From assembly GCA_934101645.1 (NCBI GenBank), contig CAKORX010000003.1, positions 5,179-69,178 of the forward strand: a stretch of 64,000 bases of DNA. The letters run 5' to 3'. The position numbers and the translations under genes are program-made. The notes under the pieces were generated by a model. It was given only the letters and a program-made list of their open reading frames with translations, was not told where the DNA came from and searched no databases. The DNA is from an uncultured Bacilli bacterium. Lineage in GTDB: Bacteria > Bacillota_I > Bacilli_A > RF39 > UBA660. Positions 6,186 to 43,801 of this stretch are shown here, piece after piece (within the stretch, counting starts at the first letter, position 1; each line of letters starts with the position of its first letter).

Positions 6186-6262
6186 GGACCTCTAGCTCAG
6201 TTGGTTAGAGCATCCGGCTCATAACCGGGCGGTCATAGGTTCGAGTCCTATGAGGTCCACCA
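6186..6262 (+). tRNA. tRNA with CAT anticodon, most likely tRNA-Ile2 (lysidine, k2CAU) rather than Met
   Basis: 77-nt cloverleaf GGACCTCTAGCTCAGTTGGTTAGAGC...CTCATAA...GGTTCGAGTCC...GGTCCACCA. It is highly similar to Bacillus tRNA-Ile(CAU) as I recall it, and ends in an encoded CCA. Confidence 0.8.
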
Positions 6263-6269
6263 TTCAATT

Positions 6270-6354
6270 GCAGGTATGGCGGAATTGGCAGACGCGTTAG
6301 ACTTAGGATCTAATGGAGTAATCCGTGGGGGTTCAAGTCCCTTTACCTGCACCA
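6270..6354 (+). tRNA. tRNA-Leu (TAG)
   Basis: 85 nt with a long variable arm, anticodon loop cuTAGga, GGTTCAAGTCC T-arm and encoded CCA. Confidence 0.85.
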
Positions 6355-7592: not shown

Positions 7593-9740
7593 ATGAATAA
7601 TATAATAATTGAAAATATTGCAAATAATTTAAATATAAAGGTATCACAAGTTCAAAAAACTTTAGAACTTTTAAGTGAGGGATGTACAATTCCATTTATT
7701 GCAAGGTATAGAAAAGAAGCCACAGGCGCACTTGATGAAGAACAAATAAGAAAAATAAACGAAGTATATGATTATGAAAATAAGTTATTAGAACGCAAAG
7801 AAAATGTTATAAAACTTATAGACGAAAAAGGATTATTAACCGATGAATTAAAAGATAAAATTATGTCTTCGGAAAAACTTGTCGAAGTTGAAGATTTATA
7901 TAGACCATTTAAAGAAAAAAAGAAAACTAAAGCTACGGATGCAATTAATAATGGTTTAGAACCACTTGCTAAAATGATTATGTCTTTCCCAGTTAAAGGA
8001 AATATTGAACTTTTAGCAGGAAAGTTTGTAAATGATAAAGTTAAAACTATTGATGATGCAGTAACCGGAGCAGGCTACATAATTGCAGAATATATTTCTG
8101 ATAATGCTTATTATAGAAAATGGATAAGAAACTATATATTTAAAAATGGAACGCTAGTAGCTAAAAAGAAAAAAGATGCTATTGATGAGAAAAAAGTTTA
8201 TGAAATGTATTATGATTTTTCTGAAAGCATAAGACTTATTAAGTCATATCGTGTACTTGCAATAAATAGAGCAGAAAAAGAAAAAATAATATCTGTTTCT
8301 TTAAATGTTGATAATGATAAAATAATTAGTTTTTTAGAAGAAAAAATTATTAAAAATAAAGAAAGTTTTGTAGTAAAAATTGTTGAAGATGCAATAAAAG
8401 ATAGCTATAAAAGGCTTATTTATCCAAGTATTGAAAGGGAGATTAGAGCGGAACTTTCTGATACAGCAGAATCTGTTGCAATTAAAAACTTTAGTGAAAA
8501 CTTAAATAATTTACTTTTAACACCACCAATAAAAGATAAGATTGTTTTAGGACTCGATCCTGCATTTAGAACTGGTTGTAAACTTGCAGTATTAAATCCT
8601 GTTGGTAAAGTTCTAACAATTGAGAAGATTTATCCACATGAACCGGTCAATAAATATGAAGAGGCTAAAATTAAAACAATTGATTTAATAAATAAATATA
8701 ATGTAGATATTGTTGCTATTGGTAATGGAACTGCCTCAAGAGAAAGTGAAAGATTTATTATTGATGTTTTAAAAAATGTAAATCATAAAGTTGATTATAT
8801 AATTGTTAGTGAGGCAGGAGCTTCAGTTTATAGTGCATCAAAACTTGCCATAAGTGAATTTCCAAATTTAGTTGTTGAGGAAAGAAGTGCAATAAGTATC
8901 GGTAGAAGACTTCAAGATGCTTTAGCAGAACTTGTAAAAATCGACCCAGAAAGTATTGGTGTAGGATTATATCAACATGATGTTAATGATAAAAAACTTT
9001 CTGAATCACTTGATTTTGTTGTAACAAAAGTTGTAAATGATGTCGGAGTAAATATAAATACCGCTAGTTCTTCACTTTTAAAATATGTTTCTGGAATGAC
9101 AAAGAATTTCATAGATAAAATTATTAATTATCGTGAAAACGAAGGGAAAATTACTTCTAGGGAAGAAATACTAAAAAATAAGTTATTAAGTGCTAAAGCT
9201 TATGAACAAGCAATTGGCTTTATGAGAGTTGAAGGTGGAACTAATCCATTTGATACTACAGATATTCATCCAGAAAGTTATGATGTTGCTAAAAAAATTA
9301 TGGATATTTTAAATATAAGTTATGATGATATAGGTAAAGAAAGTATTTTACCAAAACTTGATAATATAAATGAAGATGAACTAGTTAATCAAACTAAAAG
9401 TGATATTTATACAGTGCAGGGTATTTTAAATTCACTAAAAAAACCCCATAGAGATCCAAGGGATGAAATGCCAAAACCAATTCTTAAAAGTGATATTTTA
9501 GAAATAAAAGATTTAAGTATTGGCATGAAAATTCAAGGAACAGTTCGTAATGTTGTAGACTTTGGAGCATTTGTTGATATTGGACTACATAATGATGGTT
9601 TAATACATATTTCTAAAATGAGTAAAAATTATATTAAACATCCAAGTGAAATTTTGTCAGTTGGAGACATTGTAGATTGCTATGTAATAGGTATTGATAA
9701 AGAAAAAGAGAAAGTAAACCTTTCATTATTTAATGATTAA
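7593..9740 (+). CDS. tex: Tex-like RNA-binding transcription accessory protein (YqgF/HhH/S1 domains)
   Basis: About 715 aa with PFIARYRKE near the N-terminus, a central YqgF-like region, HhH motifs and a C-terminal S1 domain (GTVRNVVDFGAFVDIG). GAGG RBS lies before ATG 7593. Confidence 0.85.
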   Translation: MNNIIIENIANNLNIKVSQVQKTLELLSEGCTIPFIARYRKEATGALDEEQIRKINEVYDYENKLLERKENVIKLIDEKGLLTDELKDKIMSSEKLVEVEDLYRPFKEKKKTKATDAINNGLEPLAKMIMSFPVKGNIELLAGKFVNDKVKTIDDAVTGAGYIIAEYISDNAYYRKWIRNYIFKNGTLVAKKKKDAIDEKKVYEMYYDFSESIRLIKSYRVLAINRAEKEKIISVSLNVDNDKIISFLEEKIIKNKESFVVKIVEDAIKDSYKRLIYPSIEREIRAELSDTAESVAIKNFSENLNNLLLTPPIKDKIVLGLDPAFRTGCKLAVLNPVGKVLTIEKIYPHEPVNKYEEAKIKTIDLINKYNVDIVAIGNGTASRESERFIIDVLKNVNHKVDYIIVSEAGASVYSASKLAISEFPNLVVEERSAISIGRRLQDALAELVKIDPESIGVGLYQHDVNDKKLSESLDFVVTKVVNDVGVNINTASSSLLKYVSGMTKNFIDKIINYRENEGKITSREEILKNKLLSAKAYEQAIGFMRVEGGTNPFDTTDIHPESYDVAKKIMDILNISYDDIGKESILPKLDNINEDELVNQTKSDIYTVQGILNSLKKPHRDPRDEMPKPILKSDILEIKDLSIGMKIQGTVRNVVDFGAFVDIGLHNDGLIHISKMSKNYIKHPSEILSVGDIVDCYVIGIDKEKEKVNLSLFND

Positions 9741-20797: not shown

Positions 20798-20874
20798 GTC
20801 CTCGTAACTCAATTGAATAGAGTACTTGCCTCCGACGCAAGAAGTTATGGGTTTAAATCCCATCGAGGACACCA
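20798..20874 (+). tRNA. tRNA-Arg (CCG) with non-canonical D- and T-loops
   Basis: 7-bp acceptor stem GTCCTCG/CGAGGAC plus ACCA; anticodon stem CTTGC/GCAAG with loop cuCCGac. The D-loop AATTGAATA lacks G18G19 and the T-loop is TTTAAAT, with U where C56 is normally found. Confidence 0.65.
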
Positions 20875-27955: not shown

Positions 27956-27986
27956 CTTTTTGTATAATAATATTTGGTGGAAGAAA

Positions 27987-37393: not shown

Positions 37394-37942
37394 ATGTTAG
37401 AAAAATTTAATAAATTTTTATATTCATCAATAATATTATCAGTATTAATGTTTGTTTTAGGATTAATATTTATGATTTACCCAAATGTATCATTTTCAGT
37501 AATTACTTATATAGTAGCTGTATTTCTAATTATTAATGGAATTTACTTTATTATAGAGAAAGATACAAGTTTGTTTTTCTCAGGTTTCCTAACTTTAGGA
37601 GTCCTAGAATTATTAATGGGAATTATAATGATTATTAATCCTCAGATAGTTAAAACATTATTTCCTATAGTAGTAGGAATATCAATGGTTGTAAAATCTG
37701 CTCTTGATTTAAGAATATCTTTATTATTAAGCGGTAGTGGTTACAAAAATTGGCTAATTCTATTTATATGTTCACTTCTTTCAATTATCTGTGGAATTTA
37801 TATTATAATAAATCCAGGTATTGGAAGTGAAGTAATAACTACTTATGTTGGTATAGTAATAATGGTTTATGCAGTATCAAATATTATAGATACAATTATC
37901 TTTAAAAAGAATGTAAATGATATAGTTAAACTTTTAAAATAG
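37394..37942 (+). CDS. HdeD/DUF308-family membrane protein
   Basis: Six-TM repeat pattern typical of DUF308. AGGAG RBS lies before ATG 37394. Confidence 0.65.
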   Translation: MLEKFNKFLYSSIILSVLMFVLGLIFMIYPNVSFSVITYIVAVFLIINGIYFIIEKDTSLFFSGFLTLGVLELLMGIIMIINPQIVKTLFPIVVGISMVVKSALDLRISLLLSGSGYKNWLILFICSLLSIICGIYIIINPGIGSEVITTYVGIVIMVYAVSNIIDTIIFKKNVNDIVKLLK

Positions 37943-38018
37943 GTTAAAAAACCTATTTTTTTTATAATTTAAGGTTTATTTAATAAATAAAATCTATTAT
38001 AATTTTTGTAGGTGAAAT

Positions 38019-38675
38019 ATGAAAATACTTTTAATTGAAGATGAACAATCACTTGTTAAAATTATAAAATAAACATTAGAAAATTCTAAATTTGAAGTAG
38101 ATTTTTCCTTAGATGGACTTATAGGGTATGAAAAAGCATTAAGCAATGAATACGATTTGATAATTTTAGATGTAATGCTTCCAAATAAAAACGGATTTGA
38201 TATTTTGAGTGATTTAAGAAAAAATAATATTACTAGTAAAATTATTATGCTTACTGCACTATCTAGTTTGGAAAATAAAATTGATGGGTTTAACAAAGGC
38301 ACAGATGATTATTTAACAAAGCCTTTCCATATTGAAGAGCTTATTGTGAGAATTAATAAACAACTTAATTTAATTAATTATAAAATTTCTTATGAGGATA
38401 TTTATTTAGATAAATCTAATAAAAAATTAATAAATGAAAAGACTAATGAAAGTGTTGACTTAGTTTGTAAAGAATATAAACTTTTAGAATATTTAATAAA
38501 TAATCAAATCATGATACTTTCAAAAGAGCAGATATACGATAAAGTGTGGGGTATTGAAAATGAAAGTGAATCAAATAATATTGAAGCATATATGTCATTT
38601 TTAAGAAAAAAACTAAAATCAATAGCTTCAAGTGTAACTATAAAGTCCTATCAAAATTTAGGCTATAAATTGGAA
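38019..38675 (+). pseudogene. OmpR-family response regulator with in-frame TAA at codon 18
   Basis: MKILLIEDEQSLVKIIK-TAA(38070-38072)-TLENSKFEVDFSLDGLIGYEKAL..YDLIILDVMLP...LTKPF... gives a receiver domain. A winged helix ending ...IKSYQNLGYKLE follows. The whole reading is in one frame. Confidence 0.7.
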
Positions 38676-38741
38676 GCTCAAAATGAGAAAGTTAAAAAGA
38701 AAATAGAAAATTCTTTGAAAGATATAAAAGAAAATAATTTA

Positions 38742-39278
38742 AGAACTCAAAATAATGACCGTAAAGATGAATTCTTTGAAAAGATAGTTTCAGATACAAC
38801 TTCATTCTATTTCAAAGGAAAAAAATATGATTGGACATTTTATTTAGATGTGTTTAATAATGAAATTGTTGGATTAGATGTAAGAAAAACAATGTACGGA
38901 AATGGTATATTAAATCATAAAAAAACTGTAGAAAATATGCTAAATAACAAAATAAAAAGAGGATATAAAGACCTAGATACAATAGTTCACATAGATCAAG
39001 GCATTATTTATTCCTCAGTATCATTTAAAAATATATTTAATTCCTATAACATAACCAGATCTATGTCTAGAGCTGGTATACCAACAGATAATCCAGTTAT
39101 TGAATCCAAAAATGGATGGTTAAAGAAAGAAATGTATATTGATTTTGACGTAAATAATTATAACACAGTTAAAGAATTTATTGATGATATTATTTGGGAT
39201 AATAATAACTATAGATCCAGTTATGCTTTAAATTATAAAAACCCAATTGAATATAGAACTCAACTGGGCTTTCAATAA
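38742..39278 (+). mobile_element. IS3/IS150-family transposase OrfB remnant (DDE integrase core only), fused in-frame to the response regulator
   Basis: ...VSDTTSFYFKGKKYDWTFYLDVFNNEIVG...HIDQGIIYSS...SMSRAGIPTDNPVIESKNGWLKKEM...YRTQ aligns with the catalytic half of IS3-family OrfB. There is no OrfA, no OrfB N-terminus and no stop codon between it and the regulator. Confidence 0.7.
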
Positions 39279-39334
39279 TACTTTTTTAGTGTCTACTTTT
39301 TGTTGACAACTTCATTTTTAATAAGTAGCATTTT

Positions 39335-39904
39335 TTATATTTCATCTTTTATTAATTTATCGATATAAGAAATTATTTCATCTTTAGTATACTTACCATT
39401 AGAATTTAAATATTCAAATCCTAAATTTAGGACTCCACCAACGTAGAATTTAGCAATAATCTCTGCGGGAATTCCATCACTAATTTTTTCTTTACTAATT
39501 CTTTTTAAAATATCATCATTTATTGCACTAAGTAAAATATCCATCATTATACTATTTCGATTATGTACCATAATTGAGGAATATATATCTTTTTTATCCT
39601 CAACATGATTTAAAAATATTTTAATAAGCTCAAGATAGTATTCTTTTATATTTAATGCTTTGTTATTTTCTAGTTTTTGAGAAAACTCATCTTTTAAGTC
39701 TTTAATGAAATCTACAAGAAGTTCATATTTATCTTCATAATGTGCATAAAAGGTTGATCTATTTATTAAGGCTTTTTCACATATATCAGATACTTTAATT
39801 TCTTCAAATGTTTTCTCTTTCATAAGTTCCACTAAAGATGTATATATCATTCTTTTTGTTTTAATAACCCTCAAATCTTTTTTCTTTTCCATTTTTTTCA
39901 CCAA
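39335..39904 (-). CDS. TetR/AcrR-family transcriptional regulator
   Basis: N-terminal HTH ...RMIYTSLVELMKEKTFEEIKVSDICEKALINRSTFYAHY is the TetR signature. Divergent from the MMPL gene. Confidence 0.8.
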   Translation of the reverse strand: MVKKMEKKKDLRVIKTKRMIYTSLVELMKEKTFEEIKVSDICEKALINRSTFYAHYEDKYELLVDFIKDLKDEFSQKLENNKALNIKEYYLELIKIFLNHVEDKKDIYSSIMVHNRNSIMMDILLSAINDDILKRISKEKISDGIPAEIIAKFYVGGVLNLGFEYLNSNGKYTKDEIISYIDKLIKDEI

Positions 39905-40072: not shown

Positions 40073-43000
40073 ATGAAAAAGTTTGCGGACAAAATATGTA
40101 AGCATAAAAGTCTCATTTTAATTGTAACCGGTATTTTAATGGTTCTATCATTTATCGGTATGAGTTTAACTAAAGTAAATTATGATATTTTAGTTTACTT
40201 ACCCGAAGATATTGAAACAATACAAGGCCAAAATATATTAACTGATGACTTTGAAATGGGTTCATATTCTGTGGCAATAGCAAAAAATATGTCCTCAAAA
40301 GAAATAATAAAGTTAGAGGATAAAATTAAAAATGTGAAAGGAGTAAATAAAGTAGTATCACTATATGATGCTACCGGAGTAATTCCTGTAGATATTTTAC
40401 CAACTGATATCACAAAATATTTACATGATGATAATGCCGATATATTCTTAATTACTTTTGCAGGTGGAACTTCTTCAGAAGAAACCATTAATGCCGTAAA
40501 AGAAATAAGAAATCTTACTAGTGATAGTGTAAAACTTGGCGGAATGAGTTCAATGGTACTTGATACAATGAACCTTTCAAATGAAGAAATAGTTATTTAT
40601 ATAATTATTGCAGTAATACTTTGTATTGCAGTGTTAGAATTTTCACTAGATTCATATATAGTTCCAATTTTACTTCTTGCAAATATTGGTATAGCTATAC
40701 TTATAAATATGGGAACAAATGTCTTTTTAGGAGAAATTTCCTACATAACAAAGGCATTAGTTGCAGTACTTCAACTCGGAGTAACTACTGACTTCTCAAT
40801 TTTCTTATATAACTCTTACGAAAAGAAAAAAACATTATATAAATCAAAAGAAGAAGCAATGGCAAATGCTATTATAGAAACTTTTACTTCAGTTATTGGT
40901 AGTAGTCTTACAACAATTGCAGGTTTCTTAGTTTTATGCACAATGAGTTTAACTTTAGGAAAAGACTTAGGTATTGTAATGGCAAAGGGTGTTTTAATCG
41001 GACTTATTTCAACACTTTTACTATTCCCAGCATTACTTCTTACATTTGATAAATTAATTGATAAAGCTAAACATAAAAAGATAAATTTAGTTTTTGATAA
41101 ATTAAATCATTTTATTGTAAAAAATTATAAAGTAATATTTATTATTTTTGTACTTTTAATAGTACCTGCATATTTAGCTTATTCAAAAGTAGATGTATAT
41201 TACAAAATGGATAAAACACTTCCTGATACTTTGGAAAGTATAAGTGCAAATAAAGAATTAAAAGATAAATTTAACATAGTAAGCCCAGAAATGATCATTT
41301 TAGATAGTAATGTTAAAGCTAGTGATGTAAGTAATATGATAAGTGAAATTAAAGATGTTGAAGGAATTGATTTTGCTTTATCACTTTCTGAACTTGAGAA
41401 AATGGGACTTTCTGAAAATGTTATTCCAAGTGATTTACTTAAAATATTTAAAAGTGGTAAATATCAAATGGTACTTGTAAATAGTATTTACGAAGTAGCC
41501 AGTGATGAAATAAATAATCAAATTACTTTGGTTAATGACATAGTTAAAAAATATGATAAAACCGCTATCGTAGCAGGTGAAGGACCACTTATGAAAGATT
41601 TAATTAAAATAAGTGATACTGACTTTAATAATGTAAATTATTCAAGTATATTATGTGTATTTATCATATTAATTATTTGTTTAAAAGCATTTGCTTTACC
41701 TGTTTTATTAATAATCACTATTGAAGCCGCTATATTCATAAATATGAGTATTGCATACTTTGGTGGAGTAGTTTTACCATTTGTAGCTCCAATAGTACTA
41801 GGAACAATTCAGTTAGGAGCAACAATTGACTATGCTATACTTTTAACAACTACATATAAAGAAAAAAGAAAAACTATGGATAAGAAAAAAGCAATGGAAG
41901 AAGCACTTAATTACTGCGGAGCTTCAATACTTATAAGTGGTTTATGTTTCTTTGCTGCAACATTTGGTGTAGGAGTATATTCTAAACTTGAAATGATTTC
42001 ATCATTATGTACTCTTATTTCAAGGGGAGCCATTATAAGTATGGTGGTAGTAATTTTAGCACTTCCTACAGTACTTCTTACATTTGATAAATTAATATTT
42101 AGAAAGAAAGGAAATGATAATATGAAAAATGTTAAGAATAAAAAAATTATAGAGGCATCATTTTTAGCACTTCTAACTTTAATGCCATTAAATACATTTG
42201 CTCTTTCAAAAGATGAAACAGTTTATGCTCATTTAAATGAAAATGGTGAAAGTAAAAGTGTTATAGTTTCTGAAATTTTAAAAAATACAGAAAATAAAAA
42301 TGAACTTATTGATTATTCAACTCTCGAAGATATCGTAAATAAAAATGGAAACGAAACTTATACACTTGATAAAAATAAATTAACTTGGATGAGTAACGGA
42401 AATGATATATATTATGAAGGTAAATATCAAAAGTCTTTACCAATTTCAATGGATATAACTTACAAATTAGATGGCAAAAAAGTAAATGCTAAAGATGTTT
42501 TAGGCCAAAGTGGTAAAGTAGAAATTATCATTAATTACAAAAATAATTCTAAAAAAAGTGTTAATATAAATGGAAAAAATGCAAATATTTATACACCATT
42601 TATGATTATGTATGGAGCAATGCTTGATAGTAATTATAATAAAAATGTAACTATTAATAATGGTAAAGTTATTGCAAATGGTAATAAAAATATGGTAGTA
42701 GGTTTAGCTATTCCAGGTCTTAAAGAAAGTCTTAATATAAATGAACTTTCCCTTGATAGCTTAGTTATTACATATGAAACTACAAACTTCGAAGTACCTA
42801 CAATGTATAATGTTATTTCAAATAAACTAATAAGTGATGGAAATTTTAATATTTCTAAAATAAATACGCTTTATGAGAAAGTTGAAAGTCTTCAAGATGG
42901 AATTGATAAAATTAATGAAGGTTCAAAAAGTCTTAGTGATGGTTTATCACTTTTAAAAAATACTCTTATAACATCTTTATCTTCTTTAGATGATAATAGT

Positions 43001-43801
43001 AGTGCATTAACTGATAATGAAGTTTCTTATATTAAAGAAAGTGCAATTAATAGTACTCTTAATACTATGAAAACAAATTTAATAGTTGATGCAAATGGTA
43101 ATGTAATTGGCTCAAAAGATGAAAATGTAAATAATATAGTTTCATCATCAGTAAAAAAAGCAGCATTAAATTATTTACAAAGTGTTAATGAAGAAGAAAA
43201 TTTAAACACATATTTAACAGTTATGACTAAAATGCAAAATAATATAGAACTTAGTGATGAAGAAAAACTTTTTGCTTATACACATAAAGATACTTTAACA
43301 ATACTTGGAATTGTTGTTAATGCAAGTACTATTTCTGCAAAAGAGGTAAGCACCAATATATCAACTTATGTTGCTAAAAGTGTAGCGGGAAGTGTATCAG
43401 AAAGTGTTGCTAAAAATGTTGCAGATGAAGTTAAAAAAGAGGCAATAAAAAGCACTAAAGAATCATTAAATGAACTATTGGGTGCTATAACTAAACTTGA
43501 TAATGGAGCAACTACTTTAAATGATGGCATAACTAAATACAATAAAGAGGGTATAAGTGCTATTTCAAACATTGTAAATAGTAATGTTAAAGAATATGAA
43601 GCTAGATTAAATGAGATTAATAAATTAGCAAAAGAATATAAAACTATCGAAGAAAAGTCTATTAGTAATGAAGACGAGACAAAATTTATTTTAGTTGTTG
43701 ATGGTCAAAAGAAGGAAGAAACTGTAAAAAATAGTGAAACTAAAGAAGTTAAAACATCTTTATGGATTAAAATAAAAAACTTATTCAAAAAGGAAAACTA
43801 G
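40073..43801 (+). CDS. MMPL/RND-superfamily transporter with ~520-aa C-terminal N/K/S-rich coiled-coil extension
   Basis: Two 6-TM MMPL-like modules (aa ~180-330 and ~520-690), an additional hydrophobic segment, then about 520 aa of low-complexity coiled coil reminiscent of YhgE/Pip-type domains. Confidence 0.75.
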   Translation: MKKFADKICKHKSLILIVTGILMVLSFIGMSLTKVNYDILVYLPEDIETIQGQNILTDDFEMGSYSVAIAKNMSSKEIIKLEDKIKNVKGVNKVVSLYDATGVIPVDILPTDITKYLHDDNADIFLITFAGGTSSEETINAVKEIRNLTSDSVKLGGMSSMVLDTMNLSNEEIVIYIIIAVILCIAVLEFSLDSYIVPILLLANIGIAILINMGTNVFLGEISYITKALVAVLQLGVTTDFSIFLYNSYEKKKTLYKSKEEAMANAIIETFTSVIGSSLTTIAGFLVLCTMSLTLGKDLGIVMAKGVLIGLISTLLLFPALLLTFDKLIDKAKHKKINLVFDKLNHFIVKNYKVIFIIFVLLIVPAYLAYSKVDVYYKMDKTLPDTLESISANKELKDKFNIVSPEMIILDSNVKASDVSNMISEIKDVEGIDFALSLSELEKMGLSENVIPSDLLKIFKSGKYQMVLVNSIYEVASDEINNQITLVNDIVKKYDKTAIVAGEGPLMKDLIKISDTDFNNVNYSSILCVFIILIICLKAFALPVLLIITIEAAIFINMSIAYFGGVVLPFVAPIVLGTIQLGATIDYAILLTTTYKEKRKTMDKKKAMEEALNYCGASILISGLCFFAATFGVGVYSKLEMISSLCTLISRGAIISMVVVILALPTVLLTFDKLIFRKKGNDNMKNVKNKKIIEASFLALLTLMPLNTFALSKDETVYAHLNENGESKSVIVSEILKNTENKNELIDYSTLEDIVNKNGNETYTLDKNKLTWMSNGNDIYYEGKYQKSLPISMDITYKLDGKKVNAKDVLGQSGKVEIIINYKNNSKKSVNINGKNANIYTPFMIMYGAMLDSNYNKNVTINNGKVIANGNKNMVVGLAIPGLKESLNINELSLDSLVITYETTNFEVPTMYNVISNKLISDGNFNISKINTLYEKVESLQDGIDKINEGSKSLSDGLSLLKNTLITSLSSLDDNSSALTDNEVSYIKESAINSTLNTMKTNLIVDANGNVIGSKDENVNNIVSSSVKKAALNYLQSVNEEENLNTYLTVMTKMQNNIELSDEEKLFAYTHKDTLTILGIVVNASTISAKEVSTNISTYVAKSVAGSVSESVAKNVADEVKKEAIKSTKESLNELLGAITKLDNGATTLNDGITKYNKEGISAISNIVNSNVKEYEARLNEINKLAKEYKTIEEKSISNEDETKFILVVDGQKKEETVKNSETKEVKTSLWIKIKNLFKKEN

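Follow-up and report, generated by a model that had tools for sequence, protein, structure and literature searches.

Deletions associated with insertion sequences (IS), together with the formation of pseudogenes, are a general phenomenon in host-restricted bacteria and in bacteria with reduced genomes. Operons of an OmpR/PhoB-type response regulator and a HisKA histidine kinase encode a regulator with a receiver and a winged-helix domain, and in the relatives compared here the start of the kinase gene overlaps the stop codon of the regulator. IS3/IS150-like elements are approximately 1.2–1.4 kb long, have TG...CA ends, and place OrfA and OrfB in a –1 frameshift arrangement at an AnG motif, with a DDE triad and K/R seven residues after the E (PMC5771124). 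The IS150 subgroup of the IS3 family is marked by a D(57–60)D(35)E spacing and by its own clade in OrfB trees (PMC5771124). Parts of both systems are found together at positions 38019–39278 of the 64,000-nt stretch of DNA that was analyzed (hereafter the window; 25% G+C). This locus is, with a probability of about 0.92, a young composite pseudogene made up of a complete regulator gene with a nonsense codon, approximately 28 kinase codons, and the final 540 nt of an IS3-family element. It represents ordinary gene decay and not a new regulator–transposase fusion protein.

On the plus strand, the translation of frame 1 of 38019–39278 comprises 419 codons and a stop. As an earlier note on this DNA had reported, the frame is interrupted at codon 18 by a TAA (38070–38072), which is its sole internal stop; codons 19–419 are free of any further stop. 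Pfam recognizes Response_reg (PF00072; amino acids 3–112, 85 bits against a cut-off of 30.2), Trans_reg_C (PF00486; amino acids 144–218, 62.7 bits against a cut-off of 26.2), and rve (amino acids 254–354, 33.4 bits) in this translation, and the regulator residues D8, D51, T79, and K101 are all kept, as is the transposase triad D259, D326, and E362. The earlier description of a receiver and a winged helix that are recognizable apart from the TAA, and of the DDE catalytic half of an IS3-family transposase, is borne out by these matches and by the C-terminal part of the NCBIfam model NF033516. Its direct passage from ...GYKLE into the IS sequence is not, as residues ~224–252 (38689–38774), which lie between the two, are a remnant of the kinase. 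The features of the locus are given below, where L001 and L161–L163 are other alleles of the same locus, L081 is a relative with an intact regulator–kinase pair, and L007 holds an intact copy of the IS.

38019–38699, plus strand: response-regulator pseudogene of the OmpR/PhoB type (Pfam Response_reg and Trans_reg_C), all 227 codons present
38070–38072, plus strand: nonsense codon TAA at regulator codon 18, also in L161, L162, and L163; GAA in L081
38689–38699, plus strand: single surviving direct repeat AAGTTAAAAAG, the junction of a 94-nt deletion specific to the window; two copies in L001
38700–38771, plus strand: histidine-kinase remnant, approximately kinase codons 38–61 (KIENSLKDIKENNLRTQNNDRKDE), or codons 34–61 with the repeat included
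38772–38779, plus strand: kinase::IS deletion junction, with the microhomology CCATTTGA in L001 and L161–L163 and TTCTTTGA in the window after CCA>TTC
38775–39278, plus strand: IS3-family OrfB remnant, the C-terminal 167 codons and the stop, with D259, D326, and E362 (DNA and protein homology; NF033516)
39272–39314, plus strand: right terminal inverted repeat (IRR), 43 nt, aligning with the IRR of the intact L007 copy and with the complement of its left repeat (IRL)
39335–39904, minus strand: TetR-family regulator (Pfam TetR_N and TetR_C_8), an intact neighbor that is not part of the wreck

At the amino acid level, the regulator part is 86% identical to its intact 227-aa counterpart in L081, whose end reads ...GYKLEYQNEKIKK and a stop. 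Among the NCBIfam models, it matches many of the OmpR/PhoB type, every one of them below its equivalog cut-off, and the best equivalog is RppA (170 bits against a cut-off of 250). Coding is interrupted by the TAA at codon 18, a position that is occupied by E, S, D, T, A, or K in homologues (Glu, encoded by GAA, in L081), and the regulator lost its native stop in the 94-nt deletion, so that the last four regulator codons fall within the merged AAGTTAAAAAG repeat. The regulator of L001 keeps its own stop after ...QNEEVKK, where it reads ...GYKLEVQNEEVKK and a stop. The suggestion that the TAA is a sequencing error is refuted because the identical codon occurs in three other independent assemblies (L161, L162, and L163). 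Reassignment or read-through of TAA was considered separately and ruled out, as the 38 long open reading frames of the window end normally under translation table 11; TAA ends 26 of these 38 and is the usual stop, so recoding is no option.

Between the regulator and the IS lie 28–30 codons (~38689–38771) that are assigned to the region following the transmembrane segment in the partner histidine kinase (codons ~34–61) and not to the IS, because comparison with L001 and L081 matches them to the N-terminus of the kinase. In L001, the kinase start and its transmembrane segment are kept; the ATG overlaps the stop of the regulator and the product begins with MKKLKSKVFLFNYLVLTFCLITIITIFNVQKYFEVKKKIENSLKDIKENNLRAQNNDRKDEPF, which is homologous to the start of an open reading frame of ~400 aa (HisKA and HATPase_c) located directly after the regulator in dozens of loci. 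The repeat AAGTTAAAAAG is present twice in L001 (at 10200 and 10294, 94 nt apart) and once in the window (at 38689). The 94-nt deletion took the stop of the regulator along with the start codon and transmembrane segment of the kinase, and, as its length is 1 mod 3, it put the regulator frame into the kinase frame. It was this deletion, overlooked in the earlier reading of an uninterrupted passage into the IS, that made the frame continuous. The adjacent HisKA and HATPase_c kinase, intact in relatives, is missing from the window: a tblastn search of the 64 kb with the intact L081 kinase found no match at E ≤ 1e–3 besides a 31-residue remnant. The earlier statement that there is no sensor kinase gene therefore stands, although the kinase remnant of ~28 codons had escaped notice.

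The homology to the IS has a sharp start. DNA alignments to IS copies begin at 38775 in 44 of 45 cases (at 38774 in L007) and stop at 39314 in most loci, while protein homology begins at FEKIVSDTT (amino acid 253), where the identity leaps from chance level to 80–95%. The IS-derived part amounts to 167 codons instead of the ~180 amino acids proposed earlier. An apparent overlap of 25–50 residues between the regulator and transposase homologies (tblastn starts at amino acids 179–214) was rejected as chance matches of Lys-rich sequence, the real start being amino acid 253. The window keeps the last ~540 nt of the IS, consisting of the 167 OrfB codons, the stop, and the complete IRR, which ends in ...GACAACTTCA (...CAACTTCA) 20 nt from the stop codon of the TetR gene. 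Of the earlier claims on its structure, the absence of OrfA and of the OrfB N-terminus holds, and neither an HTH nor a slip site was found in the remnant; the claim that no inverted repeat is recognizable holds for the IRL, which is deleted, but not for the IRR. With the IRL and the left flank gone, the window lacks the two inverted repeats and the 3–4 bp target duplication of an IS, and its IS part is a remnant, not an element. On NF033516 (IS3 family transposase), the remnant scores 99.8 bits, which is below the cut-off of 160 because it is truncated and covers only the C-terminal part of the profile (positions 217–369 of 369). Its spacing is D259(66)D326(35)E362 with K at E+7, the D–D distance of 66 comparing with the 57–60 quoted for the IS150 subgroup (PMC5771124). 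The IS part is 81–89% identical to any other copy that was fetched, and no second copy of the IS was found in the 64-kb window.

Intact copies, found in other genomes, define the ends of the element. The parent copy in L007 (9317–10681, 1365 bp) is bounded by imperfect inverted repeats of 43 nt (TGAAGTTG.../...CAACTTCA), with ATTA flanking it on each side. Parent copies (~1350–1365 bp) share inverted repeats of the form TGAAG...CTTCA, the IRL being TGAAGTTGTMARMWAAAAGTAGACAC; in these copies, OrfA is present, LKK is followed by an A7G motif, and OrfB lies in the –1 frame. L007 has an OrfA of 119 aa, and its –1-frame OrfB scores 170.4 bits on NF033516; P0015, a contiguous OrfAB form that reads through LKK-RIPNERRW over the A-run, scores 237.8 bits, and both are above the cut-off of 160. 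The parent IS thus occurs in two forms, either with OrfA and OrfB split by the –1 frame or as a contiguous OrfAB of ~410 aa (P0015, P0016, P0023, and P0107). Modelling of the –1 frameshift in the L007 copy led to a stop seven codons past the A7G slip site, and it was the contiguous P0015 that confirmed this site; with such a stop in the –1 frame (9704–9735), the L007 copy may itself be inactive. The parent IS has a wide distribution across the gut metagenomes of humans, rodents, rabbits, and ruminants. In many metagenome-assembled genomes (MAGs) of uncultured gut Bacilli, Mollicutes-like bacteria, and Clostridia, it forms a stand-alone contig of ~1.35 kb (L013, L026, L033, L037, and L043; 1350–1358 nt), which suggests multi-copy repeats that break assemblies.

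The kinase and IS parts meet at a microhomology of 8–9 nt, (A)CCATTTGA. At the corresponding point, the L081 kinase reads ...AAT GAG CCA TTT GAT AAT (..GAGCCATTTGATAAT) and the IS copies read ...AGA CCA TTT GAA AAG ATA GTT (..AGACCATTTGAAAAGATAGTT), while L001 and L161–L163 read GAT GAA CCA TTT GAA AAG ATA GTT (GATGAACCATTTGAAAAGATAGTT in L001). The kinase and the IS are continuous in frame because both partners read the microhomology as Pro-Phe in the same frame. Gone with this deletion are ~820 nt of the IS, the remaining kinase sequence, and anything that separated the two. Since one endpoint is inside the IS, the event is an illegitimate, microhomology-mediated deletion and not an adjacent deletion made by the transposase. 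A single kinase::IS junction is common to five assemblies (the window, L001, L161, L162, and L163). At 38772–38774, the window has TTC in place of the CCA of L001 and L161–L163, that is, three adjacent substitutions exactly at the junction, creating GAATTC, which may reflect either a multi-nucleotide mutation or a short repair tract.

Alignment with relatives identifies both the lost kinase, which is of the 406-aa type found in L081, and the original stop of the regulator, which is preserved in L001. The metagenome contig L081 is 84.5% identical to the window over 37967–38705; both genes of the pair are intact in it, the regulator at 227 aa with GAA at codon 18 and the HisKA/HATPase_c kinase at 406 aa. 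Downstream of the kinase, it encodes a Cthe_2159-domain protein (420 aa) and then a 582-aa protein without a Pfam match; no homologue of either gene was found in the window. The 582-aa protein accompanies the regulator–kinase pair in ~25 fetched loci, and, judging from these relatives, its gene was likely lost in the same deletion as the kinase; the earlier reading had not included the likely disappearance of the two downstream genes. The site where the IS inserted, the target duplication it made, and the identity of the lost genes are putative in the same way, as they are drawn from L081, which is 84.5% identical and has flanks that are not syntenic. Examination of flank synteny in species with an intact pair gave no empty site, and the flanks are not conserved outside the species.

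The ~580-aa protein (L081 3405–5153) has an N-terminal membrane segment, a Pro/Asn-rich linker, and a repetitive Thr/Asn/Gly-rich body, with no Pfam match; it is the usual companion of the regulator–kinase pair and may be its regulatory target. Homologues were found in L047, L050, L052, L057, L064, L066, L067, L076–L078, L083, L093, L095, L096, L101, L104, L108, and others, sometimes with the Cthe_2159 (PF14262) protein beside them. A second, unrelated decay of the same module was observed in another lineage (L130 1–2800; UMKL01052709.1), where the regulator is split by a frameshift (ORFs 116–313 and 337–900), there is no kinase after it, and the gene for the 582-aa partner is in two pieces (1024–1488 and 1555–2790).

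The other alleles of the locus show different forms of decay around the same junction. Scanning one genome per species yielded L001 (CAKONC010000001.1), a MAG of an uncultured member of the Bacilli that originates from a Hadza gut sample. It shares 97.5% identity with the window, and the two are collinear over window positions 27975–49333. A 513-nt deletion between copies of TATTTAATAAATAA (positions 37977 and 38490 of the window) has taken the ribosome-binding site and codons 1–157 from L001, so it has no receiver domain, and it has a TAA at codon 290, in the IS part. The contigs L161, L162, and L163, from three samples, are 99.4% identical to the window and share with it both the codon-18 TAA and the kinase::IS junction, but their deletion is another one, between CTCAAAAT repeats (163 nt when measured against L001, 69 nt against the window). 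In a search of 5.8 billion proteins, the sole cluster with the regulator and rve architecture was P0001, which holds one sequence of 344 aa from the same species; it is encoded on L161–L163 and was called from Met53 (ATG at 38175) by gene callers. How widely each event is shared gives the order: the junction, present in all five assemblies, came before the TAA, present in the 99.4% group, and the small deletions came last. Because the TAA is limited to the four assemblies with 99.4% identity, it is younger than the kinase::IS junction.

Comparison of the window with L001 indicates that the remnant drifts almost neutrally, as a pseudogene does. Nine flanking genes pooled gave 62.5 nonsynonymous (Nd) and 129.5 synonymous (Sd) differences, with dN/dS of 0.03–0.37 per gene. 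The corresponding values were Nd 7 and Sd 3 for the regulator C-terminus (dN/dS 0.52), Nd 3.2 and Sd 0.8 for the kinase remnant, and Nd 5 and Sd 1 for the IS part (dN/dS 1.19), or Nd 15.2 and Sd 4.8 for the whole remnant (dN/dS ~0.7), which is based on only ~20 substitutions. The Nd/Sd counts of the remnant and the flanking genes differ (Fisher p = 3e–4). Between the remnants of the window and L161, there are 10 replacements and two silent changes. Of the 100 columns that are conserved in ≥95% of 51 intact IS copies, six are altered in the window and five each in L001 and L161. Three of these deviations are shared, and each lineage has two to three of its own; by contrast, 27 of the intact copies show none.

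The gene that follows the locus was noted earlier as a TetR gene and is found as such on the minus strand. Together with a divergently transcribed 1242-aa membrane protein of the MMPL family (40073–43801), it forms an intact pair that is unrelated to the wreck; both genes are under strong purifying selection (dN/dS against L001 of 0.05 for TetR and 0.09 for MMPL). Nearly all long open reading frames of the window (1–64000) are on the plus strand. An Rfam scan of the window identified three tRNA genes (6186–6259, 6270–6351, and 20798–20871) and nothing at 38019–39278.

The earlier proposal of a two-component system that was wrecked by an IS and a deletion, and later by a nonsense mutation, is supported by the intact pair in L081, by the junction in five assemblies, by the younger age of the TAA, and by the near-neutral drift. 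The ancestor would have carried a regulator–kinase operon, probably followed by a Cthe_2159-like gene and the ~580-aa gene, as in relatives. An IS3-family element of ~1.36 kb would then have inserted downstream, with its right end adjoining the 3' end of the TetR gene. A single deletion joined kinase codons 62–63 to approximately nucleotides 822–825 of the IS at the junction seen in all five assemblies, and took the catalytic part of the kinase, any downstream genes, the left end of the IS, OrfA, and the OrfB N-terminus. The orphaned regulator decayed afterwards in a different manner in each lineage. In the lineage of the window and L161–L163, codon 18 changed from GAA to TAA, after which the window lost its 94 nt between the AAGTTAAAAAG repeats, welding the frames by chance, and L161–L163 lost their 163 nt between the CTCAAAAT repeats. 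In L001, the course was the loss of 513 nt between the TATTTAATAAATAA repeats, with the promoter-proximal region and codons 1–157, and the gain of a TAA in the IS part. The long open frame remains because the wreck is recent, within ~2.5% divergence, and no working product is expected from the locus.

A different explanation is a domesticated, functional fusion, in which a phosphorylation-controlled DNA-binding domain would be combined with a DDE nuclease/integrase and would be made through read-through of the TAA, or because the TAA is an error. The single continuous frame of 419 codons, in which Response_reg, Trans_reg_C, and rve are recognizable with their catalytic residues, would be in keeping with such a protein. 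Moreover, the deletions of the window and of L161–L163, which are different, both bring the regulator and the IS into one frame, which is mildly suggestive of a fusion that was kept. The chance of such a coincidence is ~1 in 9, however, which is not significant, and no selection is read into the two deletions because both are downstream of the older, shared TAA. That TAA is present in four assemblies, and TAA is the main stop codon of this genome. In L001, the receiver domain is missing, the native stop of the regulator is still there, and another stop interrupts the rve part; the expressed chimera that the earlier note had offered as an alternative is refuted by these alleles. The dN/dS of ~0.7–1.2, the replacements at residues that are invariant among intact copies, and the occurrence of the architecture in a single one-sequence cluster from the same species among 5.8 billion proteins also argue against the fusion, as does the lack of the HTH and OrfA regions that bind the IS ends, and we consider it exceedingly unlikely. 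An assembly or sequencing artefact, be it sequences wrongly joined at a repeated IS or a base-calling error that gave the TAA, might be suspected since IS repeats often break or mis-join metagenome assemblies and many of the fetched copies are stand-alone contigs of ~1.35 kb. Yet the same junction occurs in five independent assemblies from different samples, which differ from each other by point changes and by different nearby deletions and of which four have an identical TAA, and the IS part, at 81–89% identity to any fetched copy, is no collapsed repeat; the odds of an artefact are accordingly minimal.

A minor function for part of the locus is also very improbable. A product from an internal start (ATG at 38175, with a partial receiver, the winged helix, the linker, and the DDE core), or the DDE core alone, might inhibit the transposition of related IS3 elements, or the IRR might serve as a promoter or terminator for the neighbors. 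[quoted passage not shown] On the other hand, there is no Shine–Dalgarno-like sequence before the ATG at 38175, the IS part is neutral and is interrupted by the stop in L001, and the 64-kb window holds no other copy of the IS to regulate. A promoter and terminator scan of 37850–39450 gave results no better than shuffled sequence, with 17 promoter-like matches against 14.8 ± 3.4 expected. It is accordingly highly doubtful that an internally started winged-helix–DDE protein or a free DDE core damps related IS3 transposition or acts as a DNA-binding or DNA-cutting regulator, with the in-frame deletions as a trace of selection; even when the internally initiated product and the OrfB-like inhibitor are taken together, the case for them is slight.

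Read as a composite pseudogene, the locus should be annotated as a regulator, a kinase fragment, and an IS3 fragment, and not as a fusion protein or an orphan regulator. It has little importance beyond annotation. It does offer a clean, dated case of stepwise gene loss in an uncultured, low-GC gut member of the Bacilli, in which one IS-linked microhomology deletion was followed by at least three independent direct-repeat deletions and two independent nonsense mutations within ~2.5% divergence. Such cases help to calibrate rates of pseudogene decay, and chimeric open reading frames in MAG annotations need comparative checks.

In comparison with known systems, the regulator is like those of OmpR/PhoB–HisKA operons in its receiver and winged helix and in D8, D51, T79, and K101, and differs in its nonsense codon, its lost stop, and a kinase that is reduced to ~28 codons. 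The parent copies agree with the IS3 family in size, inverted repeats, –1 frame, and A7G motif, and the remnant agrees in D(35)E and the K at E+7 (PMC5771124), whereas the remnant is confined to the last 540 nt, without IRL, OrfA, or HTH, and its D–D distance of 66 lies outside the 57–60 quoted for the IS150 subgroup, so that it is assigned to the family without a subgroup. The course of events also resembles IS-associated decay, in that insertion of an IS would have been followed by deletion of adjacent genes and then by decay of the useless partner through nonsense mutation and direct-repeat deletions. It differs in that the kinase::IS deletion has one endpoint inside the IS and not at the IS end.
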